Part shown: positions 2,043 to 28,668 of the stretch, piece after piece | Layout of the letters: each line of letters begins with the position of its first letter | Position numbering within the stretch: the stretch's first letter is position 1 | Virus record (IMG/VR): IMGVR_UViG_2917413769_000005 | Source of the DNA: a virus | Taxonomy: Duplodnaviria > Heunggongvirae > Uroviricota > Caudoviricetes | Strand: one strand, 5' to 3' | DNA length: 30,838 bases | Translations under genes and position numbers: made by a program | The notes under the pieces: generated by a model | Told to the model about the DNA's origin: nothing | Database searches by the model: none | The model's input: only the letters and a program-made list of their open reading frames with translations

Positions 2043-3269
2043 ATGGGGGATTATCACTGCGAACTCAATAACGTAATGGTGGAAACTATGGCGGAAGATC
2101 GCTTTCATGGTGCCCGCATCCGGGAGAATACCGACCTTGTGGCGGCTATCAATGACATTGAATCGAATGTCATTGGGGTCGTCGCCGTGGCGGATGATGC
2201 CGATGCGGAAGCCTTTCCCCTGAATACCCCCGTGTTAGTGACGCGGGTTAACAACGTGCTGGGTAAGGCGGGTAAAACCGGCTCCCTGTACAAAACGCTT
2301 AAGGCCATCGCTGACCAGACCAGCCCGAAGGTGATCGTTGTGCGCGTGGCAGCAGCTACGGAAGAGGAAGGCGGTAAAACGCAGGCACAGCTTATCATGG
2401 GCGGCACGGCAGAAGACGGCAGCTATACCGGCATGTACGCATTCCTGACGGCAGAACAGAAGGTCGGCTATCGTCCGCGCATTCTGGCTGTGCCGGGATA
2501 CGACACGGAAGAAGTGACCTCCGCGTTGTGCGTCATTGCGCAAAACCTGCGCGCGTTTGTCTATGCCAGTTGTTACGGCTGTAAGACGATGGCGGAAGCC
2601 ATCACCTATCGCGCAACCTTCGCCTACCGCGAACTTATGCTTATCTGGCCTGATTTCATCGCCTATAACCCGCTGACCGGAGAAAACGAAACCTTCCCGG
2701 CCCCGGCGTATGCCTGCGGCCTGCGTGCGCTGATTGACAACAATCAGGGCTGGCATAAATCGCTTTCCAACGTATCAGTCAACAACGTGCTGGGTATTTC
2801 TCAGGATGTTTTCTGGTCGCTTCAGGCAGAAGACAGCGACGCGAACGAACTGAACAACAAGGAGATCACGACGCTCATCAAGCGTAACGGATTCCGGTTC
2901 TGGGGAAACCGCGTCACGGATACCAAAGATTACATCTTTGAGGTTTATACCCGTACCGCCCAGATTCTGGCTGACAGCATTGCGGAAGCGCAGTTTGAGG
3001 CCATTGACGAACCGCTTACCCCAGCGAACGTCAAGGACGTGGTGAGCGGTATCAGCGGGAAACTCAGCTCGCTGGTGACGCAGGGGCGGCTAATCGGCGC
3101 TGAATGCTGGTTTGATATCCTGGATAACCCGACAACCGGGCTTCGACAGGGTCAGGTGCGCATTCGCTATAAATATACGCCGGTTCCGCCGATGGAGGAT
3201 CTGACGATGTACCAGACCTTCACCGATGAATACTTTGAATCGGCGTTCTCTTCGCTGGGAGGTGCATAA
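2043..3269 (+). CDS. FI: contractile tail sheath protein
   Basis: 408 aa; N-terminal MGDYH and overall pattern (DADAEAFPLN, RAFVYAS, GFRFWGNR, YKYTPVPPMEDL) match P2 FI. Confidence 0.9.
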   Translation: MGDYHCELNNVMVETMAEDRFHGARIRENTDLVAAINDIESNVIGVVAVADDADAEAFPLNTPVLVTRVNNVLGKAGKTGSLYKTLKAIADQTSPKVIVVRVAAATEEEGGKTQAQLIMGGTAEDGSYTGMYAFLTAEQKVGYRPRILAVPGYDTEEVTSALCVIAQNLRAFVYASCYGCKTMAEAITYRATFAYRELMLIWPDFIAYNPLTGENETFPAPAYACGLRALIDNNQGWHKSLSNVSVNNVLGISQDVFWSLQAEDSDANELNNKEITTLIKRNGFRFWGNRVTDTKDYIFEVYTRTAQILADSIAEAQFEAIDEPLTPANVKDVVSGISGKLSSLVTQGRLIGAECWFDILDNPTTGLRQGQVRIRYKYTPVPPMEDLTMYQTFTDEYFESAFSSLGGA

Positions 3270-3785
3270 ATGGCGGTTCCCCACAAACTGCGCCTGTTCA
3301 CCTGCTTTGTGAACGGCAGCAACTGCATCGGCAAAGTCTCTTCCGTGACGCTGCCAAAGCTGACACGTAAAACGGAAGACTTTCAGGGCGGCGGGATGAT
3401 TGGATCCGCTGCGGTGGATCTCGGTCTGGACAGTGGCGCGCTGGATACCACGATGGTGGTTGGCGGTCTGGTTCAGTCGCTTCTGCTGAACTACTGCGGC
3501 GATATCGACGAGACCCGCTTCCGCTTCGCCGGCGAGTATTACACCGATGGTGAAAGCCTGCTGGTTGAGGTCGAACTGCGCGGCCGCATCACCGAAATGG
3601 ACGGCGGTGAAAGCAAGCAGGGAGAAGACACCTCCGTCAGCTACACGATGAAGAACACCTACTACAAGCTCACCATCGACGATAAGCCGTTGTTTGAGTT
3701 TGATCTGCTGAACTTCATCTACAAGAAAGACGGCAAGAATATCTACCCTGACCGCATTACGTCTGCGCTGGGAATGGGTAACTGA
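3270..3785 (+). CDS. FII: tail tube protein
   Basis: 171 aa; VTLPKLTRKTEDFQGGGMIGSAAVDLGLD matches P2 FII; starts directly after the FI stop. Confidence 0.9.
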   Translation: MAVPHKLRLFTCFVNGSNCIGKVSSVTLPKLTRKTEDFQGGGMIGSAAVDLGLDSGALDTTMVVGGLVQSLLLNYCGDIDETRFRFAGEYYTDGESLLVEVELRGRITEMDGGESKQGEDTSVSYTMKNTYYKLTIDDKPLFEFDLLNFIYKKDGKNIYPDRITSALGMGN

Positions 3786-3833: not shown

Positions 3834-4151
3834 ATGAGCAAAAAAAACGATAACGCCATTACGCTGGCAAAACCCGTTGTTCGCGGCGATGAGAAAATTA
3901 CTCAGGTAACGATCACTGATGAGATCAAACAGGCTGGTTCCCTGCGCGGGCTGAAGCTGGTTAACGTGATGAATATGGATGTGGATTCAGTAGCGATATT
4001 GCTGACCCGCGTCACGTCACCGCGCCTCAAACAAACCGAGATCAACGAAATGGATACCCGTGATTTTGTCAGCCTGTCAGAAGCGCTCGTCCCTTTTTTG
4101 ACGCCTGCGGGGTCTGGAGCATCGAACGAGGCGGAGACGGAGAATCAGTAA
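3834..4151 (+). CDS. E: tail assembly chaperone E
   Basis: ATG at 3834 (MSKKNDNAITLAKPVVRGDEK) with GGAG 9 nt upstream; contains slippery T_TTT_TTG at 4094-4100 near its 3' end as in P2 E. Confidence 0.8.
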   Translation: MSKKNDNAITLAKPVVRGDEKITQVTITDEIKQAGSLRGLKLVNVMNMDVDSVAILLTRVTSPRLKQTEINEMDTRDFVSLSEALVPFLTPAGSGASNEAETENQ

Positions 4152-4312
4152 CACTCCTGCGGTTCGACCTGATCGACGATCTGGTCGCTGATATCGCGGT
4201 TGTTTTCAACTGGCCGCCCTCTGAAGTCTTCACGATGGAACTGGGCGAAGTCATAGCCTGGCGTGAGCGGGCGGCTGTCCGAAGTGGAGCCAGTGACAGT
4301 GAAAAGCCTTAA
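3834..4312 (+). CDS. tail assembly chaperone E+E' fusion made by -1 programmed ribosomal frameshift
   Basis: Slippery heptamer TTTTTTG at 4094-4100; the -1 frame reads on through ...WPPSEVFTMELGEVIAWRERAAVRSG... to TAA at 4310-4312, overlapping the start of T. Confidence 0.6.
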
Positions 4313-6797
4313 TATCCGCGTCGCGTTCAGCGCGATCGATAAACTTACCCGCCCGGTCAATGCCGCCCGCCAGAGTGCGGGCGGTTTGTCTGAATCCCTC
4401 AAAAAAACGCAATCCAGCATTAAAGATCTGGACAGCCAGTCCCGCACGTTCAACCGTCTGCGCGACAGCGTACAAAAGACCTCTCGCAAAATTGACGAAG
4501 CCAGCCGGACGCTTGAAGGGCTGAATCAGGCGCAGCGGGAAGGTACACAGCTTACAGACAAGCAAAAAGCACATATGGCAGCACTGGCCGCAAAGCTGGA
4601 GCGCCTTAACTCTGCACGCACGCAGGAAATGGTTAAGCTGCGTGCTGCCTCACAGGCGCTGCGCAGCCACGGCGTTTCACTGGTCGGCAGTGATCGCACC
4701 ATTCAGAGCGCGATACGTCGAACCGAACAGTACAACCAGACGCTGGAGCGGGAACGGCGACAGCTTGCCGCTGTCACACAGGCACGGGCGCGCTATGACC
4801 AGATGCAGCAAACAGCGGGTAAACTTCGCGGCGGTGGCACGATGGCCGTTGCCGGGGCCACTGCTGCCGGTTACGCAGCGGGACGCTTCTTATCCCCCGC
4901 TGTTGGGTTTGACCGGGAAATGTCCCGCGTGCAGGCGCTGACCCGTATAGATAAAAGCTCAACAGACTTTTCAGCACTTCGTGAACAGGCCAAAAAGCTG
5001 GGCGCTGAAACGCAGTTCACCACGACTGACGCCGCCAGCGGGCAGGCGTTTCTCGCTATGGCCGGTTTCACTCCGCAGGCCATTCAGGCAGCACTGCCCG
5101 GCGTGCTCAATATGGCACTGGCCGGTGGCATGGATTTAGGTGAAAGCGCCGATATCAGCTCAAACATCCTGTCTCAGTTCCGCCTCGATCCCAAAGAAAT
5201 GGATCGCGTCAGTGACGTATTAACTGGCGCGTTCACACGTACCAACACCGATCTGCAAAATATCGGTGAGGCTATGAAGTACGCCGGGACAGGTCTTTCC
5301 AATCTTGGCGTCAGTGTTGAACAGACAACAGCCATGATCGGCGTGATGGCAAACGTTGGCCTGCGCGGGAGTATCGCCGGGACAGGATTACAGGCCGCGT
5401 TTTCACGCCTTGCCGCGCCAACCGGCAGGGCAAAAACCGCTCTCAAAGAACTGGGAGTAGACGTTGCTGATGCCACGGGGAAAATGCGCCCTGCTGAAGA
5501 GGTTCTCACTGAACTCTATAAAAAGATCAGCAAGTACGGCGATACCGACAAGCTCTCTTTCTTTAAAGATATCGCCGGTGAAGAGGCGTCAAAGTCATTG
5601 CAGGCACTGGTTATGTCAGCCGGGAGCGGCGAACTTCAAAAGCTGCTGGAAGCACTGAAAAACGCCAAAGGTGAGGCACAGAAAGCCGCCAAAATAATGG
5701 CGGATAACCTTGATGGCGATCTCAAGAATCTGGACAGCGCATGGGAAGGGTTTCGCATCCAGATTAACGATCTCGTCGATAACCAGCTTCGCGCCCTGAC
5801 TCAGGGGCTGAGTGATGTTGTGGGGAATATGACGCAGTGGGCGAAGGAGAATCCGAAGCTCGCTCAATCCCTGCTGGTTGTCGGCGGCAGCATTCTGGCA
5901 CTGACCGCCGCCATTGGCGGCACATCGCTGGCGATCGGCCTGCTGATGGGGCCACTGGCTAAACTCCAGTTAGGTTTTACCCTATTGACAGGGGGCGCAA
6001 CCGGAACAATCTCCGCCCTACGAACGCTCGGAACAGCTTCCGGCCCGGCAATGGCAAGTGTGCGCGGTTGGGGGCCTGTTCTCACATCAATGCTTAGTAA
6101 GCTGCGAGGCATATCGATCATCACGCCCGGCATTCGTGCCGGTCTTATGGGTGCGTTTCTTTCCCCAGGGGCTGCATTAGGATCTCTGTTCAAAAACATC
6201 GGAATGCTCGCTCTTCGCCTGACAGGCTTTACGACCATATGGAGCATTATCACGACCTCAGTATCTGTACTGGGTGCAGCGCTCTCACTTCTACTTAGTC
6301 CGATTGGTCTGATAGCGGCGGCTTTTATCGCTGCCGGATTGCTAATCTGGAGATTCTGGGAGCCGATAAGAGCCTTTTTCACCGGTTTTTTCAGCGGAGT
6401 TATGCAGCAACTGGCACCTTTCCGTGATGCCTTTTTCCCTTTGACGCTGGCCTTCTCAGCAATAGCCAAAGTCGTTGGTGAAGTCTGGGACTGGTTTGTA
6501 AAACTCTTATCACCTGTGGAAAGTAGCCGTGAATCCCTTGATAAATGCGCATCAGCAGGGGAAACATTCGGTAAAGTCCTGGGTAGCGCCCTTCAGTTGC
6601 TGCTATTACCTCTGACAACCCTCATGGAAGGCATTGGCTGGGTACTGGAAAAACTCGGCCTTATCCCTTCTGGTCTGGAAGCTGCACGCCTGAAAGCTGA
6701 AAGCCTTAAAAAAGACCCTGTTATGTGGGAGTGGGATCCGCAGCAGAAAAAAAATGGTGCAAAAGGGATGGAACTGGTCGCCAGTCTCATCAGGTAA
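4299..6797 (+). CDS. T: tail tape measure protein, N-terminal and main part (frame 0)
   Basis: Long coiled-coil-rich then hydrophobic Gly/Ala-rich protein typical of tape measure proteins; likely GTG start at 4299 (GGAG 9 nt upstream; alternative starts 4263-4293); frame ends at TAA 6795-6797 just after an A8 run. Confidence 0.8.
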   Translation: MKSLNIRVAFSAIDKLTRPVNAARQSAGGLSESLKKTQSSIKDLDSQSRTFNRLRDSVQKTSRKIDEASRTLEGLNQAQREGTQLTDKQKAHMAALAAKLERLNSARTQEMVKLRAASQALRSHGVSLVGSDRTIQSAIRRTEQYNQTLERERRQLAAVTQARARYDQMQQTAGKLRGGGTMAVAGATAAGYAAGRFLSPAVGFDREMSRVQALTRIDKSSTDFSALREQAKKLGAETQFTTTDAASGQAFLAMAGFTPQAIQAALPGVLNMALAGGMDLGESADISSNILSQFRLDPKEMDRVSDVLTGAFTRTNTDLQNIGEAMKYAGTGLSNLGVSVEQTTAMIGVMANVGLRGSIAGTGLQAAFSRLAAPTGRAKTALKELGVDVADATGKMRPAEEVLTELYKKISKYGDTDKLSFFKDIAGEEASKSLQALVMSAGSGELQKLLEALKNAKGEAQKAAKIMADNLDGDLKNLDSAWEGFRIQINDLVDNQLRALTQGLSDVVGNMTQWAKENPKLAQSLLVVGGSILALTAAIGGTSLAIGLLMGPLAKLQLGFTLLTGGATGTISALRTLGTASGPAMASVRGWGPVLTSMLSKLRGISIITPGIRAGLMGAFLSPGAALGSLFKNIGMLALRLTGFTTIWSIITTSVSVLGAALSLLLSPIGLIAAAFIAAGLLIWRFWEPIRAFFTGFFSGVMQQLAPFRDAFFPLTLAFSAIAKVVGEVWDWFVKLLSPVESSRESLDKCASAGETFGKVLGSALQLLLLPLTTLMEGIGWVLEKLGLIPSGLEAARLKAESLKKDPVMWEWDPQQKKNGAKGMELVASLIR

Positions 6798-7281
6798 AAA
6801 CAATAACGGGAATACACCCCCGCCCGGAACGCCGCAACCCACATCACCGCTGACCGGCGATAACGGCACTATGCGTCGATTGCAGAACATCGACAGCAAC
6901 ACCAAAGCGACAGCCGACAACACGAAGAAGATCGGCCCCGGCGATATTGTATTTAAAAACCTGCCGCGTGCTCTGGCCGTTCGTGGGGAATGGAAAGAAT
7001 CGCAGCTGGCCAGCACGGTCAGGAACAACGGGTTAAGCGCACGCCCCGCAGTGGTGGCGGCATCGCTTCCCGTAAAACAGGCGGAACTTCCGCCAGTCAG
7101 CCGCAGCGCCAACAATATACCGGTTGCCACTGGCGGCTTTACGGGAGAAATCCACGTACACCTGCACGGCGTTGACCGGCAGGACGCGCGCGAAATTGGC
7201 CGCATTGCTGCCGACGCGGTGAATGCCGAAATTGCCCGCCTTGCGCGGCTTAATCGCGGCAGTTTCAAAGACAGAGATTAA
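6754..7281 (+). CDS. tape measure protein C-terminal segment in +1 frame (frameshifted T or separate ORF)
   Basis: Frame open from 6694; fills the T-U gap where P2 has no gene; ends ...IGRIAADAVNAEIARLARLNRGSFKDRD right before the U RBS; frame change coincides with A8 at 6747-6754. Confidence 0.5.
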   Translation: MVQKGWNWSPVSSGKNNNGNTPPPGTPQPTSPLTGDNGTMRRLQNIDSNTKATADNTKKIGPGDIVFKNLPRALAVRGEWKESQLASTVRNNGLSARPAVVAASLPVKQAELPPVSRSANNIPVATGGFTGEIHVHLHGVDRQDAREIGRIAADAVNAEIARLARLNRGSFKDRD

Positions 7282-7295
7282 GGGGAGGCAACATT

Positions 7296-7784
7296 ATGAT
7301 GATGATATATGGGATGTTCGTTTTTGAACTGAAGACGCTGCCTTACCAGCAACTGCGCCACTCGCTGAACTGGCGTCATGTGAAGAATGATCGCATCAAC
7401 CGATCGGCAAAATGGCAGTACATCGGCGCAGGTGAGACGCAGATCAACCTTGATGGAGTGCTCTACCCTGAAATTACAGGCGGAGACGTATCTCTTACCG
7501 TGCTGGCAACGCAGGCATACACTGGGCGTCCGTGGCCTTTAATCAGCGGCGCGGGGCAGATTTACGGGATGTATGTGCTGACCGGACTACAGGCCACGCA
7601 TACGGAATTTGACCGCTACGGAAAGGCGAAAAAAATAGAGTTTTCGATCAGCTTCCAGCGCTGCGATGAAGACCTGCGCGAACGCCTGCAAGCGTCGTCT
7701 GTTGGCGATCTGCTTTCAGGGCTGAAGGATAAAGCCACGTCCGCCTATAATTCTGCCAGTAGTACGCTGTCGGGCCTGTTCTGA
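7296..7784 (+). CDS. U: tail protein U
   Basis: 162 aa MMMIYGMFVFELKTLPYQQLRHS...GVLYPEITGG pattern of P2 gpU family; strong RBS AAGGGGAGG 7 nt upstream. Confidence 0.85.
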   Translation: MMMIYGMFVFELKTLPYQQLRHSLNWRHVKNDRINRSAKWQYIGAGETQINLDGVLYPEITGGDVSLTVLATQAYTGRPWPLISGAGQIYGMYVLTGLQATHTEFDRYGKAKKIEFSISFQRCDEDLRERLQASSVGDLLSGLKDKATSAYNSASSTLSGLF

Positions 7785-12616: not shown

Positions 12617-13079
12617 GGGCGTCAGCCTCCCATGTCACATCCTCAAAGATGGCGCTCCAGTCACCGTCCGCTGACGGGATGCGCGGCTTAGGCTCCGGCA
12701 AATGTTCCGCGCGCGGAATGCCGTTTGCATCCAGAGTGACCTTCACGCGCTCGCGCAGCGGCATTTCAAAAAGAATGTCGGCGGTATCGTCGTTGTTGAT
12801 AAGGGTCGTAAATTTAATGTCCCGGTTTTTCTCAGGGTTCAGCAGCAGATCGGGCTGGTTGTGCCAGAGCCATGCCATTAACGGCAACGTGAAATCATCA
12901 ATATCACCGGCAAAATTCATCACAAACAGCACCAGGGTATAACGGTACATAAACGATGGTGTTTCGCCGGTCGTCTCGATGTTCCCTTCTTCCACAAAAA
13001 CGGTGAAGGCTTCAGGGTTGGCCCTGCACCATTTGTTAGCGCTGGTCAGGGTCTCGCGGAGTGAATCAGCTTTTAACAT
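12609..13079 (-). CDS. R: tail completion protein R
   Basis: MLKADSLRETLTSA...YRYTL...LMAWLWHNQPD matches P2 gpR; RBS AAGAGGT. Confidence 0.8.
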   Translation of the reverse strand: MLKADSLRETLTSANKWCRANPEAFTVFVEEGNIETTGETPSFMYRYTLVLFVMNFAGDIDDFTLPLMAWLWHNQPDLLLNPEKNRDIKFTTLINNDDTADILFEMPLRERVKVTLDANGIPRAEHLPEPKPRIPSADGDWSAIFEDVTWEADAHE

Positions 13080-13083
13080 GGCG

Positions 13084-13614
13084 CTACCTCTTAGGCGGAG
13101 TCGCTATTGAACCGTATGCGGCTTCACAGGCCAGCCCTCTGGCTCTTGCCTCATCAGCCTCTCTTGCCAGCTCTCCCGCTCGCTCGTCAGCGCGGCGGAA
13201 CAGGTCGGCGAGCAATACGGCTCCGCTGGTTTCTGTCTCGCCTCTGCCGGTAGTACCGGCACCGCAGGCGCGTTCACGTTCTTCCAGTTGCTTAGCGAGT
13301 TTATCGGCCCTGTCGTGCAGCCCACGAGAAGCAGCACGGGCACGATCGGCATCAGCCTGGACGCCAGCAAGCTGCTGGCGGGCTTGTTTTCTGATCTCAT
13401 CAACTTCCCCCTGTCGGCGTTGTTCTTCTTCCCTGGCCTCTACCTGACGCTTAGCCAGTTCTGTAGCATCGTCAGCATCACGCTGTTTCCATTTCAGCGC
13501 CCAGGCCGTATTAGCCTGACGGGTGCCGTGCCATGAACCAGAAAAGAACGCGCCCCCCAGAATTAGCGCAACCAGAAGGACGCGCCAGTGTGACCTGAAC
13601 CATGCCGGAATCAT
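13084..13614 (-). CDS. i-spanin (Rz/LysB-like)
   Basis: Start ATG 13612-13614 overlaps the endolysin stop (ATGA); N-terminal TM segment WRVLLVALILGGAFF followed by charged coiled-coil region. Confidence 0.7.
   Translation of the reverse strand: MIPAWFRSHWRVLLVALILGGAFFSGSWHGTRQANTAWALKWKQRDADDATELAKRQVEAREEEQRRQGEVDEIRKQARQQLAGVQADADRARAASRGLHDRADKLAKQLEERERACGAGTTGRGETETSGAVLLADLFRRADERAGELAREADEARARGLACEAAYGSIATPPKR
13104..13352 (-). CDS. o-spanin lipoprotein (Rz1/LysC-like), fully embedded in the i-spanin gene in another frame
   Basis: Embedded ORF with signal peptide and lipobox (MPIVPVLLLVGC), Pro-rich mature part; start could instead be at 13403. Confidence 0.55.
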   Translation of the reverse strand: MPIVPVLLLVGCTTGPINSLSNWKNVNAPAVPVLPAEARQKPAEPYCSPTCSAALTSERESWQERLMRQEPEGWPVKPHTVQ

Positions 13615-14000
13615 GCAGGGTAAACCGCATAAGGTAGCTGGAAGTGCGGCCCATCTTTCAGGGTCTTCCAGTCGCCGCCCCATTCAACGGGAATATTCAG
13701 CTCTTTGCCTGCCTGTTTGAAGGCGTCGGAAATCTGCTGGTAATATTTCCAGTCCCATGAGCCTGCCGGAGTGGGGTACGCAAACACATCCACCGCATGG
13801 CCTGAAATATGCCTGCTGTTCATCGTCTGGCTTTTCCCCTCAGCAACAAGCTGTTTTTGCCGCTCAACAGAGCGCAACCCTTCGGTGATACCAAAATCGA
13901 CGGCTGAAATCTGAAGGGCACGACGGACGATTTTCACAAGGTCAGCGTTAACACCTTTCAGGTTATTTTCACTTCTCTGACTGAATTTAAATTCACTCAT
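13611..14000 (-). CDS. endolysin, L-alanyl-D-glutamate peptidase type (M15-like)
   Basis: MSEFKFSQRSENNLKGVNADLVKIVRRAL...SRHISGHAVDV...WGGDW resembles T5-type peptidase endolysins; lies between holin and spanins. Confidence 0.7.
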   Translation of the reverse strand: MSEFKFSQRSENNLKGVNADLVKIVRRALQISAVDFGITEGLRSVERQKQLVAEGKSQTMNSRHISGHAVDVFAYPTPAGSWDWKYYQQISDAFKQAGKELNIPVEWGGDWKTLKDGPHFQLPYAVYPA

Positions 14001-14322
14001 TTCCTTTCGCTCCCCCGATACGGGTTTCAATAAAGCCGGTCACTTTGTTGCGTACCTTGTCAGCCCCCATAAATCCGATTGACGCACCCACGAAGGTGAC
14101 GGCATTGGATGGCAGGCCCAGATATTCAAGCGATCCGGCAACCGCCAGCGTGACAATCCCGCAGACCAGTGAACCGGTGGCGGTTTTCAGCATTGACTGG
14201 CCGTCATACAGACTCATCAGCGCCGATATGCTCAACGCTGCACCTGCCGCGTAGAGCGTCGGCAGATATGTAGCAATCCATTTCATTGTTTGTTCCAGCA
14301 TCCCCGTAGGTACGTCGCTCAT
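13993..14322 (-). CDS. holin
   Basis: 109-aa protein with hydrophobic membrane segments, directly upstream of the endolysin; ATG 14322 with GAGAGG RBS. Confidence 0.65.
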   Translation of the reverse strand: MSDVPTGMLEQTMKWIATYLPTLYAAGAALSISALMSLYDGQSMLKTATGSLVCGIVTLAVAGSLEYLGLPSNAVTFVGASIGFMGADKVRNKVTGFIETRIGGAKGNE

Positions 14323-14331
14323 GGCAACCTC

Positions 14332-14532
14332 TCAATCCCAAAGCTGCACCATCTCCCGCTGCGCTTTGCTCGCGATTTCCGGCAGTTCAATCTCCTGACC
14401 GGCATCAAGAAAAACCTGCTGGCTCAGTCCGGGATTGGCAGATAACACTTTTTCGGTCACGCCCTGGGTGGTGCCGTAGTGACGCCAGCAAAGCAAATCC
14501 ACCGTATCCCCCTGCAATGCCTTCACTTTCAT
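14332..14532 (-). CDS. X: tail protein X (LysM-like)
   Basis: MKVKALQGDTVDLLCWRHYG...VLSANPGL matches P2 gpX; start overlaps the L stop (TGATG). Confidence 0.8.
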   Translation of the reverse strand: MKVKALQGDTVDLLCWRHYGTTQGVTEKVLSANPGLSQQVFLDAGQEIELPEIASKAQREMVQLWD

Positions 14533-15056
14533 CAGCAAAGCTCCGCATAGAGGCGCGGCGTGTCGCGAATGTCGGCAATACTCCAGCGGGCATCCCGCCA
14601 GAGATCATCCCGTTGCAGGTCAAGCGCGGCGGCGTCTTTGTCGCCTTTAGCCGTGGTATCGACATCGCGATAACCTTCAAGTACCAGCGCCCTGGCAATC
14701 GAATAAACCGCACGCAGGAAGCGGTAGACCTTCACGTTTTCACCATTGATCATCAGCTTTTCCATCTCACCTGATGGCAGGGCTGAAGGCACATCTTCCA
14801 GAGTCTGAAAACCTGCTTTGAGCTGACAGGCGCGCCAGTCCAGCAACTGCGAGGTGACATGGGCGACCGCTTCCGTGGTGACGTGCATCAGCCTGGACGT
14901 GGTGATACCACCTGTGATGCGCGCGGCCAGACGGAGATCGGCGAGTTTAATCACCGGCCAGAAGTCCCCGGCACTGACGGTGGTATCACCATCATCAACA
15001 TCTGGGGTATCGCTGTCGGCAGGCAACACGCGCTTATTAGCCACAAGGCTGCTCAT
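14532..15056 (-). CDS. L: head completion/stabilisation protein L
   Basis: Position between M and X as in P2; ATG 15056 preceded by GGGAGA. Confidence 0.75.
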   Translation of the reverse strand: MSSLVANKRVLPADSDTPDVDDGDTTVSAGDFWPVIKLADLRLAARITGGITTSRLMHVTTEAVAHVTSQLLDWRACQLKAGFQTLEDVPSALPSGEMEKLMINGENVKVYRFLRAVYSIARALVLEGYRDVDTTAKGDKDAAALDLQRDDLWRDARWSIADIRDTPRLYAELC

Positions 15057-15154
15057 GCACTTATCTCCCATAAATCAGGCGGTGGGCGGGTGGTTAAAAG
15101 ACCGTAAACGGGCAGATATCCACCCGCGCCGCCTGTCGGACGGGGCCGAAGTCG

Positions 15155-16012
15155 TTAATTCTTTTTCTGGCTGGCAGGCTTGCGTTTTATCGCTTTGCCT
15201 GTTGCCGTCTTAGTCGTGGTTTTACGCGCCGTCGCTTTACCTGCTGCGCTGGCGGTGGTGGTCTTTTCAGGAACAGGCTCTGCAGTACCGTCAGTTTTGT
15301 CGGTGCTGGCCGTATCTCCTTCACCCGTGCCGCTATCCGCAGACAGCTTCTTAACTTCACGGGCAAGCGTGGCAATCTCTTTTTTCACCCCGGCGTTGGG
15401 GTTGCGCGTAAGCGCCTCACGGAACAGCGCCAGCGCTTCCACTTTGGTCGTGATATCAGTCGCACCGCGGCGGGCAAGTGCACGGGCCTTGCACAACTTG
15501 GCGCGCACCACATCCGGCATATCACTGTCGGCGACAATTCCCGCCACTTCGTCAAGCACTGCGATACCGGACGACAAATCAGCGTCGGCATCAGCAGCCG
15601 CGAGCGTCAACAGTGGCTTGCTCATTTCTTCGGTCAGGAAGGTCGCTGCCGTGCGGTTGAAGTTATCCGGCAACGTCAGCCCGTGGCGTACTACATAGCG
15701 CCCCAGCCTCAACGCAAGCGCATAGTCACGACAGTCAATCGCCCAGACCATCAGCCTGGTAATGACTTCATCCTGCCGCCCGCTGTCGCCGTCGAGCGTG
15801 CCTTCAATCCATCCCTCATATTCAGGCAGCATGGATTTTTTCATTTCGGCTTTGGTTTCTTCGGACTGCACGCCGCTGAGGCGGGACAAGTCCATACGCA
15901 GGCGATGCAGAATTTGCTCATGCGCGGTGCGCTGGATATCGGATTCTTCATCCGCCTGGCCCCGGCGTTCTGCCATGACCTTCTGAAAATGTCGTTGTGC
16001 CGGTGTTAACAT
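15155..16012 (-). CDS. M: terminase endonuclease (small) subunit M with basic Lys/Thr/Ala-rich C-terminal tail
   Basis: MLTPAQRHFQKV... P2 gpM-like body; C-terminal ~45 aa ...KTTTASAAGKATARKTTTKTATGKAIKRKPASQKKN; ATG 16012 preceded by GGGGAGAAG. Confidence 0.8.
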   Translation of the reverse strand: MLTPAQRHFQKVMAERRGQADEESDIQRTAHEQILHRLRMDLSRLSGVQSEETKAEMKKSMLPEYEGWIEGTLDGDSGRQDEVITRLMVWAIDCRDYALALRLGRYVVRHGLTLPDNFNRTAATFLTEEMSKPLLTLAAADADADLSSGIAVLDEVAGIVADSDMPDVVRAKLCKARALARRGATDITTKVEALALFREALTRNPNAGVKKEIATLAREVKKLSADSGTGEGDTASTDKTDGTAEPVPEKTTTASAAGKATARKTTTKTATGKAIKRKPASQKKN

Positions 16013-16057
16013 CGTCACTTCTCCCCGTCATGGCGGGGCAATGCCCCGCCGCTTCTG

Positions 16058-17107
16058 TCACTCGCCTGCCGGTTCGGCCTGGGCGAACTGAATGCCGTCA
16101 ATGAACGCAACATTGCCGTAGTCTTCAATGACGAAGTCATCGTTTGAAGATTGATACGTTGCGACACGGTTGTATTCCGGCTCTTCTTTGATCGTCCGGC
16201 GCAGACCGCCACGCTGGTAGTACACCGACAGGTTTTTGAACGGCGTGATCAGCACGCCATTTACCGGGAAGTAAGGCGCGATAAAGGTCGGCATATTGCC
16301 TACGCGCTCCTGCGCGACAATCAACTGACCGGCCAGCATTTCGGTATTCGGGTTGGTCTGGCTTAAGGCGTTGATGGCTGAGAAATTGCTGCTCGTCAGC
16401 AGGTCGCCCGCCAGAATCACCACGTTATCCGGGTTACGTTTGTGCCATTCATCCATCAGGCTGTTTTTGGCGTCGTACACCGCAGCGCCAATGTTGCCGT
16501 AGGTGCCTTTTGCGACAACCTTGTTATCTTCATCGCGCGAGGTGATCGTCACATTGGAAATGACGCGGTGCGGCGCTTCCTGGCGGATCTTTTCCAGCCA
16601 GCCAATGCCACAGTCCTGCAACAGCGGGTTAGCGGCACGGTCAGACGGATCGCTGTACTTAACGCCGTTAAAGCCAATCATGATGCGGTCAAGCGACATC
16701 TGGCGGGCCATTGCCTTGCTGATCAGCGGCTGGAACTCCGGCATATGCGCCCACGCATCAAGCTGTTCATAACTGATGCCGTAGTCATAGTTGACCTTGC
16801 GACACATGTAGTCGAACGGCTCCATTGAATGATTTGAGCCAGGGTTGCGACGACTGGTGACGCTGTTGTTTACGCCAGCCATCGGGCCTTTACTGCCGAT
16901 CAGGACTTTCTGGCCGATCTGCTGGTTGACGCCAAACACGTTAATTTTGCTCAGGAAGGAATCATTCTCCTGTGCGGCCTGCTCCAGGCGCTGCTGACGC
17001 GTCGGGTCTACAGCGAATTTTGCAGCAATAGCGGCGGTGGAAACGCCGTTGAGCTGTGCCTGCCGGGCGATGTACTGATCAAATAGCTGGCGGGTATTGT
17101 TATCCAT
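16058..17107 (-). CDS. N: major capsid protein N
   Basis: 349 aa with clear similarity pattern to P2 gpN; position between O and M. Confidence 0.9.
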   Translation of the reverse strand: MDNNTRQLFDQYIARQAQLNGVSTAAIAAKFAVDPTRQQRLEQAAQENDSFLSKINVFGVNQQIGQKVLIGSKGPMAGVNNSVTSRRNPGSNHSMEPFDYMCRKVNYDYGISYEQLDAWAHMPEFQPLISKAMARQMSLDRIMIGFNGVKYSDPSDRAANPLLQDCGIGWLEKIRQEAPHRVISNVTITSRDEDNKVVAKGTYGNIGAAVYDAKNSLMDEWHKRNPDNVVILAGDLLTSSNFSAINALSQTNPNTEMLAGQLIVAQERVGNMPTFIAPYFPVNGVLITPFKNLSVYYQRGGLRRTIKEEPEYNRVATYQSSNDDFVIEDYGNVAFIDGIQFAQAEPAGE

Positions 17108-17130
17108 GTTCTCTGCTCTCTTTGTGAATA

Positions 17131-17967
17131 TCAGTAATCAGCCAGTTGCGCGTTAGCGCCACCGCTCGCGGGTTCCCGCTGGCTGAAATTGGCGTCTGTG
17201 CTTCCCAGCTTGCTGGTCAGCGCGGCAAGATCGGAGGTCAGCTTCTGGATGGCCTGGCTGTCCTGTTCGCGAGCGCGGCTCAGGTCGTTGAAGCTGTCCA
17301 GCAGATCGGCATGGGATTGGGCGACGTTCTCCACGGCGTCACGCACCTGGCTGAACTGCTCACCGTCAGATTTACGGCCTTTGCCGATAATCCCCATGAC
17401 GCGCCCGAACCACTGTTTACCTTCATCGCTGCGCTGCTCAGCCAGTTCGATAATTTCTGCCTCAATGGCATCGGTGAACAGCGGGGCTTCGCCCTGCTGA
17501 TTGTTGAATGACATAACCTGCTGACGCTGCTGCGCGGCAAATTTCAGGCGCTCGGTGCCGAGGCTTGCCGGGGTATCGGTCATCGCCAGCCCCATCACAT
17601 ACGCCTTGCCGTTAAGCGCAAACTGCGGGTGCAGTTCAATGCTGGAGTAAATTTTCTTGCCTTCATCCGTCAGCTTCTTCATGCGCTCAGAAGGTTCAAT
17701 TTCGGCGTAAAGCGCGGTGCGTCCGGCGAGCGGGCCTTCGCTGATATCTTCAGCACTCAGCGCCGTCACATCCCCCATAGCGCCGAAATCACTGCCGGGG
17801 AAAGGCGAAAGATAGTGCTCCACGTTGACGCGTGCGCCGTACACGTCCGGGCTGTAGTTTGCTGCTGCATCACGAAGGTGCTCAGGGCGAATCTCACGCC
17901 CGTCAACGGTGGCACCGGAGACAGCAACGCGGAATTTCTTACGGGCTGGTTTAGCTGCGCTAGCCAT
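17131..17967 (-). CDS. O: capsid scaffolding protein O
   Basis: MASAAKPARKKFRVAVSGATVDGREI... matches the P2 gpO N-terminus; ATG 17967 with AGGA RBS; ORF-track start 18003 lacks an RBS. Confidence 0.85.
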   Translation of the reverse strand: MASAAKPARKKFRVAVSGATVDGREIRPEHLRDAAANYSPDVYGARVNVEHYLSPFPGSDFGAMGDVTALSAEDISEGPLAGRTALYAEIEPSERMKKLTDEGKKIYSSIELHPQFALNGKAYVMGLAMTDTPASLGTERLKFAAQQRQQVMSFNNQQGEAPLFTDAIEAEIIELAEQRSDEGKQWFGRVMGIIGKGRKSDGEQFSQVRDAVENVAQSHADLLDSFNDLSRAREQDSQAIQKLTSDLAALTSKLGSTDANFSQREPASGGANAQLADY

Positions 17968-18034
17968 GTCGATAATCCTGTTGAGTGGTTTCTGTACGGC
18001 CATGATGGCAGAGCGTAACTTGCTGTCTCAACGA

Positions 18035-18062
18035 GGTTTTGTTGTCGGAGGAGGGCCAGACC
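18035..18062. promoter_or_regulatory. second copy of the GGTTTTGTTGTC-N9-CCAGACC motif in the divergent O/P late promoter region
   Basis: Identical spacing to the copy at 1988-2016; lies about 70-80 bp upstream of the minus-strand O start, as the first copy does for D. Confidence 0.4.
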
Positions 18063-18126
18063 ATAAAGGGGGCGATAGCGGGATCGCGCGCGGGGTAATC
18101 TTCACTCCATAAACGGTGGAGGGCAG

Positions 18127-19857
18127 ATGATACAGGACGCTTTTGTACGTCAGAGGGCAAAACAACTTTACTGGCAGGGCTACCCGCCAGCGGAGATCGC
18201 ACGCCTGATGGGGATTAATCAGAACACAATTTACGCCTGGAAGAAACGCGATGAATGGGATGAAACGCCACCCGTCCAGCGCGTCAGCCAGTCTATGGAT
18301 GCCCGCCTCATCCAGCTTACGGACAAAAAAGACAAGACCGGGGGAGATTTCAAGGAGATTGACCTGCTGACCCGGCAACTGAAAAAGCTGTCTGACGGAC
18401 AACCGGCAGGGGCTGGCACGGGCAAAAAGCCGCGCAAGCGCAAGCTGAAAAATCACTTCACCGAAGAACAGATCGTCGCGCTGCGGGAGAAAATACTTGA
18501 TTCGCTTTCGTGGCATCAACGCGGATGGTATGAGCAACGCCACCACCGAAACCGCATGATACTGAAGTCCCGCCAGATTGGCGCAACCTGGTACTTTGCA
18601 CGCGAGGCGTTGCTTGATGCGCTGCGCGACGATGTGAAATACCCGTACCAGCGCAACCAGATATTTTTGTCTGCATCCCGCCGACAGGCGCACCAGTTCA
18701 GGGGATTCATTCAGAAGATGGCGGAAGAGGTGGACGTTGAGCTTAAGGGCGGTGACAAAATCGTACTGAGTAACGGCGCAGAACTGCATTTCCTCGGCAC
18801 GTCCGCTGCAACGGCGCAGTCATATACGGGCAACCTGAAGTTTGACGAATTCTTCTGGGTCAGCAACTTCACCAACCTGCGAAAGGTTGCGGGGGCGATG
18901 GCAACGCTGAAGGGGCTGACACGTACTTACTTTTCCACACCGTCAGGCGAGACCCATGAGGCTTACCCGTTCTGGACGGGCGATCGCTGGAATGAGAAAC
19001 GCCCGAAGGCACAGCGCAAAGCGTTTGATGTGGGCTGGAAAACGCTGAACAGCGGCCTGCTATGCCCGGATAAAACCTGGCGTCAGATTGTCACCCTGAA
19101 GGATGTGATAGACCACGGCTGGGAGTATACCGATCTTGAAGAAATTCAGGATGAAAACAGTGAGGATGAATTCCGCAACCTGTACATGTGCGAGTTCGTG
19201 CGCGATGGCGAGTCAGCCTTCAACCTTAACGCCCTGATTGGCTGCGGGGCAGATGGTTACGACGAATGGCCGGACTGGAAACCTTTTGCGTCCAGGCCGA
19301 TGGGTAACCGCCCGGTGTGGATAGGTTATGACGCCAACGGCAGCAGCGGCAACGGTGACAGCGGCGCGATTTGCGTTGTGGTGCCGCCACTGGTGCCGGG
19401 CGGTAAATTCCGCACGGTGGAAACGGAACAGGTGCGCGGCCTTGAATTTGAAGAGCAGGCGAAAGTTATCGAAAACTTCACCTTCAAATACAACGTGCAG
19501 CATGTCGGCATCGACGTGACGGGCGGTAACGGTGAGGCCGTTTACCAGATAGTGAAGAAGTTCTTCCCGATGGCAATGCCCTACACCATGTCAATGACGT
19601 CAAAGCGCGCCCTGGTGCTGAAAATGCTACAGCTGATCCGCGCCGGTCGCTGGGAATATGATCGCAGTGAGCGCGCCCTGATCAACGCCTTTAACTCTGT
19701 TCGCAAGGTAAAGACGCCTGGCGGATTCATCACCTATGACACTGACCGCTCGCGCGGCGTCAGCCACGGTGATTTAGCCTGGGCGAATATGCTCGCCATT
19801 ATTAACGAACCGCTGGGCCAGGAGAGTGGCAGCGGCGGGTTTGCTATGGAGTTCTGA
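18127..19857 (+). CDS. P: terminase ATPase (large) subunit P
   Basis: 576 aa P2 gpP-like; RBS GGAGGG; stop overlaps the Q start (TGATG). Confidence 0.9.
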   Translation: MIQDAFVRQRAKQLYWQGYPPAEIARLMGINQNTIYAWKKRDEWDETPPVQRVSQSMDARLIQLTDKKDKTGGDFKEIDLLTRQLKKLSDGQPAGAGTGKKPRKRKLKNHFTEEQIVALREKILDSLSWHQRGWYEQRHHRNRMILKSRQIGATWYFAREALLDALRDDVKYPYQRNQIFLSASRRQAHQFRGFIQKMAEEVDVELKGGDKIVLSNGAELHFLGTSAATAQSYTGNLKFDEFFWVSNFTNLRKVAGAMATLKGLTRTYFSTPSGETHEAYPFWTGDRWNEKRPKAQRKAFDVGWKTLNSGLLCPDKTWRQIVTLKDVIDHGWEYTDLEEIQDENSEDEFRNLYMCEFVRDGESAFNLNALIGCGADGYDEWPDWKPFASRPMGNRPVWIGYDANGSSGNGDSGAICVVVPPLVPGGKFRTVETEQVRGLEFEEQAKVIENFTFKYNVQHVGIDVTGGNGEAVYQIVKKFFPMAMPYTMSMTSKRALVLKMLQLIRAGRWEYDRSERALINAFNSVRKVKTPGGFITYDTDRSRGVSHGDLAWANMLAIINEPLGQESGSGGFAMEF

Positions 19858-20915
19858 TGAAGAAGCGCACCTACAAAAACAAACACACCGCCAGCAGTGG
19901 CAGTGCCGGACAGCCTGATATCTCTGACGCGCTCAGAAGCGATCCGGCGCTCAGCGCCTTCACGTTTGACGGGCCATATTCGGTAACAGACGGCTATGAT
20001 CTGCTGGACAGCATGTGCTGCGTCGATAACGGCCGGTACTACGAGACGCCAATAGACTGGAAGGGGTTAACCCGTGCGTTCGCACAGTCCCCACTGCATC
20101 AGTCGGCGCTTTACTTCAAACGCAATGTGCTGACCGGGTGCTATATCCCTCATCCGTTACTCTCGCGGCAGGCCTTCTCTGCGTTTGCGCTGGACTGGTT
20201 TGTCTTCGGCAATGCCTATCTTGAGCGTCGGTCTAATCGCCTGGGAGAGCCGCTAAAACTTAAGCATGTTCCGGCGCTGAACACGCGACGGGGAAGCGAT
20301 CTTGATACCTACTGGTTTATCCGGCAGTGGAAAGATGAATATGAGTTCAAGGCGGGCGAGGTCTGCCACATCATGAACCCGGACATTCATCAGGAAATCT
20401 ACGGTATGCCGGAATACATGGGGGCGCTTCTGTCCGCCAGCCTGTCACATTCCGCCGATAAATTCCGCAAACTCTATTACGACAACGGCTCCCATGCCGG
20501 ATGCATTCTCTATGTCGGTTCGGAGAAGGTGGATCAGGAAAGCATAAAGGTGGTGCAAAAAACGCTGTCACAGGCCAGAGGGAAAGGCTCCTTCAAAAAC
20601 GTGCTGATCCACGCGCCGGGTGGCGGCAAAGACGGCGTGCAACTGTTGCCGTTCAGCCAGATATCGGCAAAGGATGAGTTTCTTAACATCAAATCAGCAA
20701 CGCGCAACGATTTGCGCGACGCTCACCGCATCCCGCCGCAACTGATGGGCGCAATGCCGGAAGGCAACGGATCGCTCGGTGATGTTGAGAAGGCTGCGCG
20801 TGTCTTCGCCATCAACGAAATGTTGCCCGTGATGGAAGCAATGAAGGGCGTCAATGACTGGCTCGGTCAGGAAGTGATCCGCTTTAATCCCTACGCTCTA
20901 CTCAAAGACGAGTGA
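19857..20915 (+). CDS. Q: portal protein Q
   Basis: 352 aa P2 gpQ-like portal. Confidence 0.9.
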   Translation: MKKRTYKNKHTASSGSAGQPDISDALRSDPALSAFTFDGPYSVTDGYDLLDSMCCVDNGRYYETPIDWKGLTRAFAQSPLHQSALYFKRNVLTGCYIPHPLLSRQAFSAFALDWFVFGNAYLERRSNRLGEPLKLKHVPALNTRRGSDLDTYWFIRQWKDEYEFKAGEVCHIMNPDIHQEIYGMPEYMGALLSASLSHSADKFRKLYYDNGSHAGCILYVGSEKVDQESIKVVQKTLSQARGKGSFKNVLIHAPGGGKDGVQLLPFSQISAKDEFLNIKSATRNDLRDAHRIPPQLMGAMPEGNGSLGDVEKAARVFAINEMLPVMEAMKGVNDWLGQEVIRFNPYALLKDE

Positions 20916-20925
20916 CCCGCCCCAC

Positions 20926-20960
20926 CCGCCGCACATCCTGCGGCGGTTCTCCTTCAGTTA
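20926..20960 (+). terminator. rho-independent terminator after Q
   Basis: Perfect hairpin CCGCCGCA-CATCC-TGCGGCGG at 20926-20946 followed by T-rich TTCTCCTTCAGTTATTTTC. Confidence 0.6.
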
Positions 20961-21282
20961 TTTTCAATTCCCGTATGACCGGCCACCACCTGAGCACCAC
21001 TCAGCACAACCTTAACCCCCCTCACTCAGAGCGCATTAGCGCCACTCTGGCAGGCGCAATCTGCATTTTACCCCGAACACATCCAGAAGTGAGAAAAACG
21101 CGCGGAGAAGGCGAAAAAGGCCGGAGAATGGCAATTAAAGGCATCACCTCCCGACCCTCCGTCGCGTGGGCTGTTCCCCCGTCACCTGCGCGCGACATTT
21201 GCTTCGTTTTTTGTGCATTTCCCGATCTGGGGGCAGACCGCGCCACCACAGGGCGGAAAGGTCATAAACAGCATCAAAAAAA

Positions 21283-21309
21283 TTGTGCAAATTTGTGCAC
21301 TATTGTGCG
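21283..21309. repeat. three TTGTGC(A/G) direct repeats at 10-bp phasing (plus a fourth TTGTGCA at 21211), inside the probable cos/packaging region
   Basis: TTGTGCA at 21283 and 21293, TTGTGCG at 21303; non-coding stretch between the convergent ends of Q and doc. Confidence 0.4.
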
Positions 21310-21366
21310 ACAGAGAAAGAAGGCCCGGAGGGAAGAAAAGCCGCCTTTAAAAGACAGCTTCTCATG

Positions 21367-21750
21367 TCAGTGGGGATTGATGGATAGTCGGCGCAAAACA
21401 GCAGCAACATCGCCACTGCTTAATGAACCCGTCGCTGCGGATACGGTCAGTTCTTCCAGTTCATTACCTTCATCACGGATATCAATACCATTGCGCTTTA
21501 AAAAAGCCATCGCAACGAAAAAGGCGGTTCGCTTATTGCCGTCATTGAAGATATGACCACGCGAAATGGCGACGAGATACATCGCAGCGAGTTCGTGAAT
21601 ATCCTCAACGCCTTCATAGTAAAGCTGGTTCTGAACACGATAAATGATCGCCTCTGCTCTTCCCGGTTCTGGCATCCCCTGAACGCCGGGCAAAGCTGCA
21701 AGCAGACGATCATGAAACGCTATCACCTCCTGAGCGCTGATCCATTTCAT
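21367..21750 (-). CDS. doc: Doc toxin (Fic-fold)
   Basis: Strong resemblance to P1 Doc including HIFNDGNKRTA Fic-type motif and PGRAEAIIYRVQ; ATG overlaps the phd stop. Confidence 0.85.
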   Translation of the reverse strand: MKWISAQEVIAFHDRLLAALPGVQGMPEPGRAEAIIYRVQNQLYYEGVEDIHELAAMYLVAISRGHIFNDGNKRTAFFVAMAFLKRNGIDIRDEGNELEELTVSAATGSLSSGDVAAVLRRLSINPH

Positions 21751-21968
21751 CTGTCAGCCAGCGCCTTAATGGTACGACCGTGTCGCCCCATAATTTCAGC
21801 AAATTCAGCATCCAGTTTTGCTTCCTGCCACGCATTGAAATCATCCCGGCTGATAAGCACAGCGGCAGAGCCATCGCGGCGGGTAATTTCTACAGGCTCG
21901 CCAGCCGTAGCCGCCTCCATTACCTCAGCAATATTTTGCCGGGCCTGAGATGTGGTATAGGTTCGCAT
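21747..21968 (-). CDS. phd: Phd/YefM-family antitoxin
   Basis: MRTYTTSQARQNIAEVMEAATAGEPVEITRRDGSAAVLIS...AKLDAEFAEI resembles P1 Phd; strong RBS AAGGAGGT 5 nt before ATG 21968. Confidence 0.8.
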   Translation of the reverse strand: MRTYTTSQARQNIAEVMEAATAGEPVEITRRDGSAAVLISRDDFNAWQEAKLDAEFAEIMGRHGRTIKALADR

Positions 21969-21978
21969 ATAACCTCCT

Positions 21979-22005
21979 TTGATGTACATATTAAATGTAC
22001 ATCAA
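21979..22005. promoter_or_regulatory. putative phd-doc operator
   Basis: Perfect inverted repeat TTGATGTACAT-ATTAA-ATGTACATCAA immediately upstream of the phd RBS; another GTACA follows at about 22011. Confidence 0.5.
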
Positions 22006-22195
22006 AAACGTACAACAAGCAACGCTATCACCTGAGCCAGACCTATTTGCATTAAGCGCCACGTTGTGGCGCTAGCGGACTCTTTGCCGCCCGCGCCCGC
22101 AGAATCGTTATAACCTGCGCAACAAGTTGCGAAGGCTATAACGATTGCCATTTGATTCTTTTCCAGTGGTCTTACACACCTGAGATAAACCCATC

Positions 22196-22705
22196 TCAGA
22201 AAACTGGATTAATTTTGCGGTGGTAGAGCACTTCCCACAGAAGCGATATCAACTCTTCCTGCCTGATATCCACGGCTTCACTGGCGTCATATTTAGCCAT
22301 CAGCTCATTGATTCGCTCAACAGACAATGGCCCTGCGGAATTTACCGCTGATCGGGAAGATGGGAGACAGCTTTCTTCAGGCGGATGCTCTTCACGCCAT
22401 TTCTTTGCCGCCCTCTCATTCATCAACTGCCATTCGGGATATCGGTTAAATAGCTCACGCTCGGTACTGGTTCGCGCATCATGGCCTTCATCTGCCAGCC
22501 GCGCTGGTTCTGGCTCGCAGCTTTCAGACAAAGCAATATCGTCGGGAGCGTCAAACGGTTTTAACCCCTTGCAGGTGCAGCAAATGCGATCATTAAAATA
22601 ATACTTTTCCTTGTAGTGCAGCTCGTTACCACACTTACGGCATCGCTTAATTTTGTTACTGATGAAATCAATTACTTCCTGCTCTCGCTGTTCTTCGTCA
22701 AACAT
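22196..22705 (-). CDS. hypothetical zinc-ribbon protein
   Basis: Cys cluster CRKCGNELHYKEKYYFNDRICCTCKG; sits where P2 has orf91; 5' end overlaps the 3' end of A; start uncertain (22705 or 22747). Confidence 0.5.
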   Translation of the reverse strand: MFDEEQREQEVIDFISNKIKRCRKCGNELHYKEKYYFNDRICCTCKGLKPFDAPDDIALSESCEPEPARLADEGHDARTSTERELFNRYPEWQLMNERAAKKWREEHPPEESCLPSSRSAVNSAGPLSVERINELMAKYDASEAVDIRQEELISLLWEVLYHRKINPVF

Positions 22706-25281: not shown

Positions 25282-26297
25282 TTCACCGCATCCATGTAAG
25301 CACTTATGAAGGTTGCTGCGACTTCCGCGCAGATGGCATTTCCGTAGGCGCGCAACTGGCCCACTCTTCCGGCAACCCCATTAACCAGCGGCTTAAGTCC
25401 TGGTTTAACTGGCCTCCACTTTCCATCATGGCAGAAGAGCCAGTCAGCATCTTGCCAGAAGCCGTTAACCTGATGGGGCCAATCATTTTTGATTGCTGGG
25501 TCAGACTGCTGCCCGTCATCGCCGGAGTGATCCCCCTCCCGCCCCTGGTTCCGTCCGATGCACTCGGAGTTGTCCAACCGGATAACTGTGCTGTCACATC
25601 CAGCCGATCCGTTGACAGCTTCCCGTTGCGAATCCTCCCTCCCTGATACCCCCCTTTCCCATCCGTTGCTGTTGGAGTATTCCACCCCGCTAGGCAGGCA
25701 AAATCTTGCAGATTCGACTGCCTGCCCGCCATCATTCTGGCTATAACTTTCAATGGATCCTGATACGCGTTTTTGACGTTGCTCGCGTTCGGAGTGGGCC
25801 ACCCAGAAGAGGCGCTGTCTTATATGCGGGGCACCGAAGCCCGCAGCGCAAAGATCGAGAGCTGTTGCGGCGTAGCCCGTTCCTTCCAAGTCAGTCTGTA
25901 CAATGTCGAACCAACCGAGGCCGTCCTTGCTTGCAACCTGCTCACCAAAGACAGTCTCAGGGCGGCACTGCTCAATGAGATAGTGGAAATGGGGCCAAAG
26001 GTGCCGCTCGTCAGTAACCCCTGCTCTTTTGCCTGACTGGCTGAAAGGTTGGCACGGGCAAGAGCCTGTCCAGATAGGGCGATCGTCCGCCCATCCAGCC
26101 CGGCGCAGGGCGTAAGACCAGACGCCGATCCCTGCAAAGAAATGGCATTGAGTGAATCCGTTAAGGTCATTTGGTGTTACTTCCTCAATAGAACGGGTGT
26201 CAACAACGCCCGGCGCTATGTGCCCAGCGTCAATAAGATTGCGCAGCCATTGAGCCGCAAAGGGATCGATCTCGTTGTAATAAGCCGTCACAATCAC
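25278..26297 (-). CDS. C5-cytosine DNA methyltransferase (frame integrity uncertain)
   Basis: Frame A carries FFAGIGVW (motif I-like), GSCPCQPFS (PCQ), FGEQV (ENV-like), APHIRQRLFWV (motif VIII-like) and C-terminal LRAYGNAICAEVA (motif X-like); GTG start overlaps the Dam stop; middle part is low complexity. Confidence 0.6.
   Translation of the reverse strand: MIVTAYYNEIDPFAAQWLRNLIDAGHIAPGVVDTRSIEEVTPNDLNGFTQCHFFAGIGVWSYALRRAGWADDRPIWTGSCPCQPFSQSGKRAGVTDERHLWPHFHYLIEQCRPETVFGEQVASKDGLGWFDIVQTDLEGTGYAATALDLCAAGFGAPHIRQRLFWVAHSEREQRQKRVSGSIESYSQNDGGQAVESARFCLPSGVEYSNSNGWERGVSGREDSQREAVNGSAGCDSTVIRLDNSECIGRNQGREGDHSGDDGQQSDPAIKNDWPHQVNGFWQDADWLFCHDGKWRPVKPGLKPLVNGVAGRVGQLRAYGNAICAEVAATFISAYMDAVK
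25307..25819 (-). other. alternate-frame open segment inside the C5 methyltransferase gene, with G-W-x-T-P-x-A-x-D repeats and a motif IX-like RWLMGLPEEW
   Basis: Frame open from the TAA at 25820-25822 to the stop at 25304-25306; three repeats (GWPTPNASN, GWNTPTATD, GWTTPSASD) differ mainly at this frame's synonymous positions. Confidence 0.4.
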
Positions 26298-27184: not shown

Positions 27185-27253
27185 CTTGCTTTCTCCTGGG
27201 TGCAGGAAGCCCGGCGCGGTGATGCGCCTGACTACTGGTTAATCATTCAGTGG

Positions 27254-27646
27254 TTAATTGACTGCGCCATCCGGCGCGAGTGGTGGTGATTCGCGTAACG
27301 CCTGAATTTCAAGGCGTGGCGCAGCGTGATCGGGAAACTCCCACGGCAACGCCGCAGCAAGCTCGGCAAGGCGCTTAATGCCTAACATCAGGCTCACTTT
27401 GTCCTGAGAGCTGAACTGTTCAAAAGGCATAGTGAGATGGGAATGAGTCAGCGACGGCAGATCTTTAAACCGCTGCGCAGCTTCGTTTGCCAGCAGGATG
27501 ATCACCTTTTTCTGAGTCTCGCCCAGGCGATTGAAACGGCTCGCCGTGTCATTGGTGCGGGAAACTGAAATGCTCGACTGCAAACGGGCGCGCTGTTCAA
27601 GGAACATCTGACGCCCGGATACTGGTTTCTCTTGTCCGATATTCAT
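27254..27646 (-). CDS. hypothetical early-region protein
   Basis: ATG 27646 preceded by GGGGGATAGGA; sits in the cox-to-A early region where P2 has B and orf80-83; no motif recognised. Confidence 0.45.
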   Translation of the reverse strand: MNIGQEKPVSGRQMFLEQRARLQSSISVSRTNDTASRFNRLGETQKKVIILLANEAAQRFKDLPSLTHSHLTMPFEQFSSQDKVSLMLGIKRLAELAAALPWEFPDHAAPRLEIQALRESPPLAPDGAVN

Positions 27647-27816
27647 AATCCTATCCCCCATCACTGCCACTTATCAGGCGCACCACTCGCAAGTAATGCC
27701 TCGGATAAGAGCCGGGTTTTAGCCATGCCCGGCGCATGGTTTTGTGGTAATTTCGTGATGCCGCCTTCCAGCAAGAAGCGAGCGGCACAACTACTACCCA
27801 CCCAAAAGGAGACACC

Positions 27817-28342: not shown

Positions 28343-28374
28343 AATTAACCCCGTTATTTAGGTGAGTGAATGCA

Positions 28375-28394: not shown

Positions 28395-28428
28395 ACAGGC
28401 AGAAAAAGTTTTATCAGTTACTTAATTA

Positions 28429-28656: not shown

Positions 28657-28668
28657 ATTGTGTACCTG

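Follow-up and report, generated by a model that had tools for sequence, protein, structure and literature searches.

The tape measure gene T of the P2-like prophage recorded here is broken into two reading frames at a run of adenines, which raises the question of whether the break exists in the organism or only in the sequence record. We refer to the whole stretch of DNA that was analysed, 30,838 bp in length, as the window; it covers the prophage practically in full, beginning with a 127-aa ORF beside ogr at its left end (1–384) and extending to the integrase at its right end (29858–30838). A sequence-only reading of this stretch had offered three causes for the split: a sequencing error, an inactivating mutation, or a slippage-prone tract that gives two T isoforms. 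An artefact can be distinguished from recoding by three checks, namely whether synonymous changes break the run in relatives, whether homologues are in frame, and whether assemblies of the same strain disagree with one another.

When the sequence is read directly, the window record has eight adenines (A8) at 6747–6754 on the plus strand. The frame-0 ORF of T occupies 4263..6797 and encodes 844 aa from a GTG at 4263 or 832 aa from a GTG at 4299; the latter is the T start annotated in a sibling assembly of the same strain, and the former lies upstream of it. Frame 0 ends at a TAA at 6795–6797, 14 codons past the A8 run. Following a TGA at 6691–6693, the +1 frame stays open between 6694 and a TAA at 7279–7281, and an ATG at 6754 in this frame begins an ORF of 175 aa. 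The positions that the sequence-only reading had assigned to the A8 run, to the frame-0 TAA and to the +1 frame at 6694–7281 all hold on re-reading. Its further statement that removal of a single A would fuse the two parts into about 1000 aa is also correct, as in silico deletion of one A opens one uninterrupted reading frame of 1005 aa, or of 993 aa when counted from GTG 4299, and the 993-aa product is 100% identical to T of a second assembly of the source strain, Escherichia sp. E1130. The features are collected in Table 1.

Table 1. Positions in the window of T, its two displaced parts and the neighbouring tail genes
Feature	Position	Strand	Basis
Tail operon: sheath FI	2043-3269		
Tail operon: tube FII	3270-3785		
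Tail operon: E (PF10109)	3834-4151		
Tail operon: E' (PF06528)	4157-4312		
T N-terminal part, frame 0, premature TAA	4299..6797	+	ORF list, translation, PF10145
A8 homopolymer, almost certainly A7 in reality (AAA AAA A-TG = Lys Lys Met)	6747..6754	+	Other assemblies, homologues, platform
T C-terminal 175 codons, displaced to +1 frame	6754..7281	+	Identity to P0123 C-terminus
U, tail protein, PF06995, directly 3' of the true T end	7296..7784	+	Gene calls with Pfam

That both parts belong to one tape measure gene is seen from several comparisons. T sits between the E/E' chaperone genes and U, which is the position of a tape measure gpT, and Pfam-labelled gene calls in ten related prophages, as in the source contig, run in the order tube, TAC_7, GpE, T, GpU. 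The frame-0 part carries the gpT domain PhageMin_Tail (PF10145) at residues 228–427 (E=1.6e-53), and once the frame is restored, the tape measure family phrog_28 covers T residues 1–992 (E=8.5e-179). In the Pfam search, the 175-aa ORF has no family of its own; the PHROG entries that it matches are C-terminal fragments, and these match the fused T too. At the DNA level, approximately 6820–7350 shares about 94% identity with the 3' ends of tape measure genes annotated as intact, with 988-aa products, in phiT5282H and in several E. coli prophages. These matches come from a megablast of 6300–7350 against phage and E. coli collections, in which nothing 5' of about 6820 matched, owing to the mosaic nature of the segment that has the A run; since the matches miss this run, they identify the 3' ORF as the end of T and do not give the ancestral run length.

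Of the systems known, the P2-family tape measure protein gpT is closest; an example is the gpT of Enterobacter phage phiT5282H (YP_009879843.1, 988 aa; Peduoviridae, Novemvirus), the gene for which lies in the same order of FI, FII, E/E', T and U. It aligns end to end with the fused T, with near identity over the first ~600 and the last ~165 residues. The two genes differ in that the window has one extra A that breaks the ORF, and in a mosaic segment at approximately 6000–6820 that holds the A run and resembles phiT5282H only loosely. This segment matches prophages of Enterobacter hormaechei, Izhakiella, Serratia and Symbiopectobacterium, which have the motif WEWDPQQKKMV in common, and its mosaic nature suggests that recombination has taken place within the tape measure gene. 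The proposal that the two ORFs are parts of one P2-family T is thus borne out by protein and DNA comparison with intact tape measure genes. We also looked for what would have spoken against it, homologues that end with frame 0 together with a separate gene at 6754–7281, and found this nowhere: among the homologues compared, none ends at the frame-0 stop, and no independent gene corresponds to 6754–7281. The window record as written does not have the single ORF of ~990 aa that is expected of a gpT, having instead 844/832 aa plus 175 aa, and we attribute this to a sequencing artefact for the reasons given below.

Only one contig in the public collection has the 175-aa ORF, namely PDIL01000022.1 of assembly GCA_004745435.1 (Escherichia sp. 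E1130), and this contig is 100% identical to the window. RefSeq names the ORF 'hypothetical protein' (WP_240782964.1, Escherichia sp. E1130). The E1130 draft PDIL00000000 was made from Ion Torrent single-end reads of 35–400 bp at 50x and assembled with MIRA and SPAdes (PMC6639607); the reads are therefore flow-based in origin, as they must be for an Ion Torrent artefact. Homopolymer indels that produce frameshifts are well documented for this platform, and adenine runs are affected most; longer runs are more prone to such errors, which do not recur from one sequencing to the next (PMC12046094).

The prophage can be followed in other assemblies of the same strain. Loci of the same prophage were located through gpA, the tail fibre and the 127-aa ORF at the left end; U, which occurs in more than 1500 blocks, did not help to identify the strain. 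A 993-aa 'phage tail tape measure protein' from E1130 (TLI76117.1 / WP_138211388.1; P0123 in our set) falls in the 90% cluster of the 175-aa ORF. Its initiator is a GTG read as M, and the 992 residues that follow all match the one-A-deleted fusion. The frame-0 part of the window is identical to residues 1–818 of P0123 up to the A run, and the product of 6754–7281 is identical to its C-terminus. P0123 is encoded on VATL01000001.1 of a second E1130 assembly, GCA_005781065.1, on which three overlapping loci (L112, L115 and L117) span window positions 1–30838. Across these 30,838 bp, there are only two differences and no substitutions: the run at 6747–6754 is A8 in the window and A7 in VATL01000001.1, and a run at 21094–21098 is A5 in the window and A4 in VATL01000001.1, so that in each case the window has one A extra. 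In this comparison, the differences between assemblies of one strain are confined to homopolymer indels, as expected of an artefact. No paper on VATL00000000 was found in the literature search.

Two Logan assemblies give the same answer at the A run of T. SRR8835199 has A7 and agrees with VATL01, and a contig of SRR6148301 (SRR6148301_198) also has A7; the VATL01, SRR8835199 and SRR6148301 assemblies are otherwise identical around the site. The frameshifted genotype thus does not reappear in any of the three other assemblies of this strain, although it should if the site were one of slippage. The SRR6148301 assembly equals the window over 12672–29774, including A5 at 21094, which means that it shares the read set or the chemistry of the window; from this shared A5 and the proximity of the accessions, we infer that SRR6148301 is the read set behind PDIL01 (SRX3260321). 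Its T (L118, 3106–6086) has a private 1-nt deletion at window 5331–5332 (CC to C) that splits T into 345+648 aa. The position of the T frameshift therefore shifts with the assembler, which looks like indel noise rather than mutation. Neither frame-0 product, of 844 aa or of 832 aa, has an exact match in the protein collection, so no other record there has the same truncation. In a related prophage on a complete genome (L103; GCA_009914055.1, CP028271.1, 7019–9986), T is split into 382+593 aa at another site, and split T calls recur at differing sites in records of related and identical prophages (L103 and L118).

A real mutation in the sequenced E1130 culture, in which replication slippage lengthened A7 to A8 or left a mixed A7/A8 population, would give an assembly of identical appearance, and such a mutation would leave a T of 832 aa and a prophage that cannot build tails. 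In its favour, slippage mutations do arise in homopolymers, prophage genes do decay, T of CP028271.1 is split as well, and the PDIL01 consensus calls A8. However, SRR6148301, which probably represents the same reads because of the shared A5 at 21094, nevertheless has A7; VATL01 and SRR8835199 also have A7; the strain assemblies differ by two A-run overcalls only, with zero SNPs; and the platform of the source draft is Ion Torrent. We consider a real mutation quite unlikely.

To compare run length beyond the strain, we scanned the IMG/VR and GTDB representative genomes with a degenerate pattern for the junction, which tolerated spacings from 1 base shorter to 2 bases longer than in-frame (A6 to A9; gaps 1–4). 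With the window's own contig left out, this gave 102 sites in 97 IMG/VR and GTDB loci. The in-frame spacing (gap 2) is found in 102/102 of these homologous sites, and the ORF goes on for 160–250 codons past the site; none of the 102 is out of frame, each being a single ORF through the site, and the two-frame arrangement that a slippage site would have is seen at none. The Lys-Lys codons at the junction are AAAAAAA in 51 sites, AAGAAAA in 37 and AAAAAGA in 14. A synonymous G therefore breaks the A run in 51/102 sites, and the run lacks the nucleotide-level conservation of a slippery sequence. Since the Lys codons vary synonymously, what is under selection is the Lys-Lys-Met peptide, not a slippery tract. 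The same scan argues against a phase-variable homopolymer of the contingency-locus type, because no variation in length between in-frame and out-of-frame states was seen among the 102 sites with gaps 1–4 allowed. In the protein search with the fusion, P0001 and P0005 (both from Enterobacter hormaechei) read through the mosaic segment with …DPVMWEWDPQQKKMVQKGWNWSP…, and more distant tape measure proteins retain QKKMV.K.W.

Five of the scanned loci (L011, L020, L051, L080 and L100) have two pattern matches 63 bp apart in the tape measure gene, corresponding to a tandem 21-codon duplication of the WEWD..QKKMV.K.W unit in these five related genes. Such a duplication amounts to a minor length polymorphism of the tail ruler, which, if functional, would be expected to make the tail a little longer.

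Runs of A are known slippery sequences, and programmed slippage at the T run, either by RNA polymerase or by a ribosome shifting +1 at tRNA-Lys, would produce T isoforms of 832 aa and 993 aa in the manner of E/E'. What speaks for such a scheme is that a +1 shift at the second AAA codon of the A8 run regains the wild-type …QQKKMVQ… exactly, and a +1 slip of tRNA-Lys on AAA AAA A has this effect because the insertion sits inside the run. Against it, the shift is needed in none of the 102 relative sites, with a pattern that covers A6 to A9; the G that interrupts the run in half of them leaves the protein unchanged; and three further assemblies of this prophage from the same strain have A7. Programmed slippage at this run is effectively refuted, and we assign it a negligible probability.

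The operon itself provides a positive control for these comparisons. A TTTTTTG slip site at 4094–4100, near the end of E, is the canonical P2-type programmed −1 site, and the −1 frame there encodes a GpE-family extension (PF06528) to 4312 that overlaps the start of T. The T run resembles this site in that E/E' lies in the same operon, immediately upstream of T, and in that its slip site is also of the homopolymer type. The two differ in conservation: the nucleotide sequence of the E/E' site is conserved, a T6+ run being kept in 65/69 relatives, and its two-frame arrangement is universal, whereas the A run in T is not conserved and its two-frame arrangement exists in one assembly only. Thus, the likeness of the T frameshift to the genuine E/E' programmed frameshift is superficial.

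Because the source is an Ion Torrent draft, three assemblies have A7, and 102/102 relatives are in frame, we read the eighth A as an artefact. With a probability of roughly 0.93, the eighth A at 6747–6754 is a homopolymer-length miscall in the Ion Torrent draft PDIL01 and T is intact. The genomic run in E1130 would then be A7, encoding Lys-Lys-Met, with the eighth A absent from the DNA of the organism, and T in the organism would be one continuous, ordinary 993-aa gene of P2 type (…WEWDPQQKKMVQKGWNWSP…) between E/E' and U, at whose A run no recoding, isoform production or inactivation would occur. We infer that the raw reads leave the count at this position ambiguous, at 7 or 8 A. The case is like Ion Torrent indel artefacts in other bacterial drafts, where an error in the length of an A run yields an apparently frameshifted gene, and, as in those artefacts, independent sequencing of the same strain does not reproduce the frameshift, and the choice of assembler alters it; we found no respect in which it differs from them. 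With regard to the causes that the sequence-only reading had offered, the sequencing error is supported by the platform and by A7 in three assemblies, and slippage isoforms are contradicted by the in-frame relatives and the unconserved run. The apparent split of T is almost certainly not a real biological feature. It is very improbable that the A7 tract, which about half of the relatives also have, allows low-level slippage to a minor T of ~832 aa with a role in tail assembly, or that the culture was a mixture of A7 and A8.

The T case matters for data hygiene only and holds no new biology, but it illustrates clearly how the three checks named at the outset separate a homopolymer artefact from recoding. 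Taken at face value, the frameshift would wrongly flag an otherwise intact-looking P2-like prophage as tail-defective, and it presumably also yields a pseudogene call for T in GCA_004745435.1. WP_240782964.1 is almost certainly an artefactual RefSeq entry created by the frameshift; it corresponds to the C-terminus of WP_138211388.1.

The second discrepancy, at 21094–21098, lies between the portal gene (19857–20915) and a Fic/Phd cargo module. With A5, it gives a 214-aa ORF (20912–21556) that is implausible in composition and overlaps Fic on the opposite strand. The region around it is probably non-coding and the A5 probably another homopolymer miscall; as the site looks intergenic, it is uninformative on coding.

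By Pfam labels, the prophage has two cargo regions, both on the minus strand. Beside the portal gene, 21367–21970 encodes a Fic-domain protein and a PhdYeFM-type antitoxin, and upstream of the gpA replication gene, 25278–27184 encodes adjacent D12-class N6-adenine and C5-cytosine DNA methyltransferases. The flanks in L115 and L117 place the prophage in its host between the cpxP/cpxRA locus and the fieF-pfkA locus.
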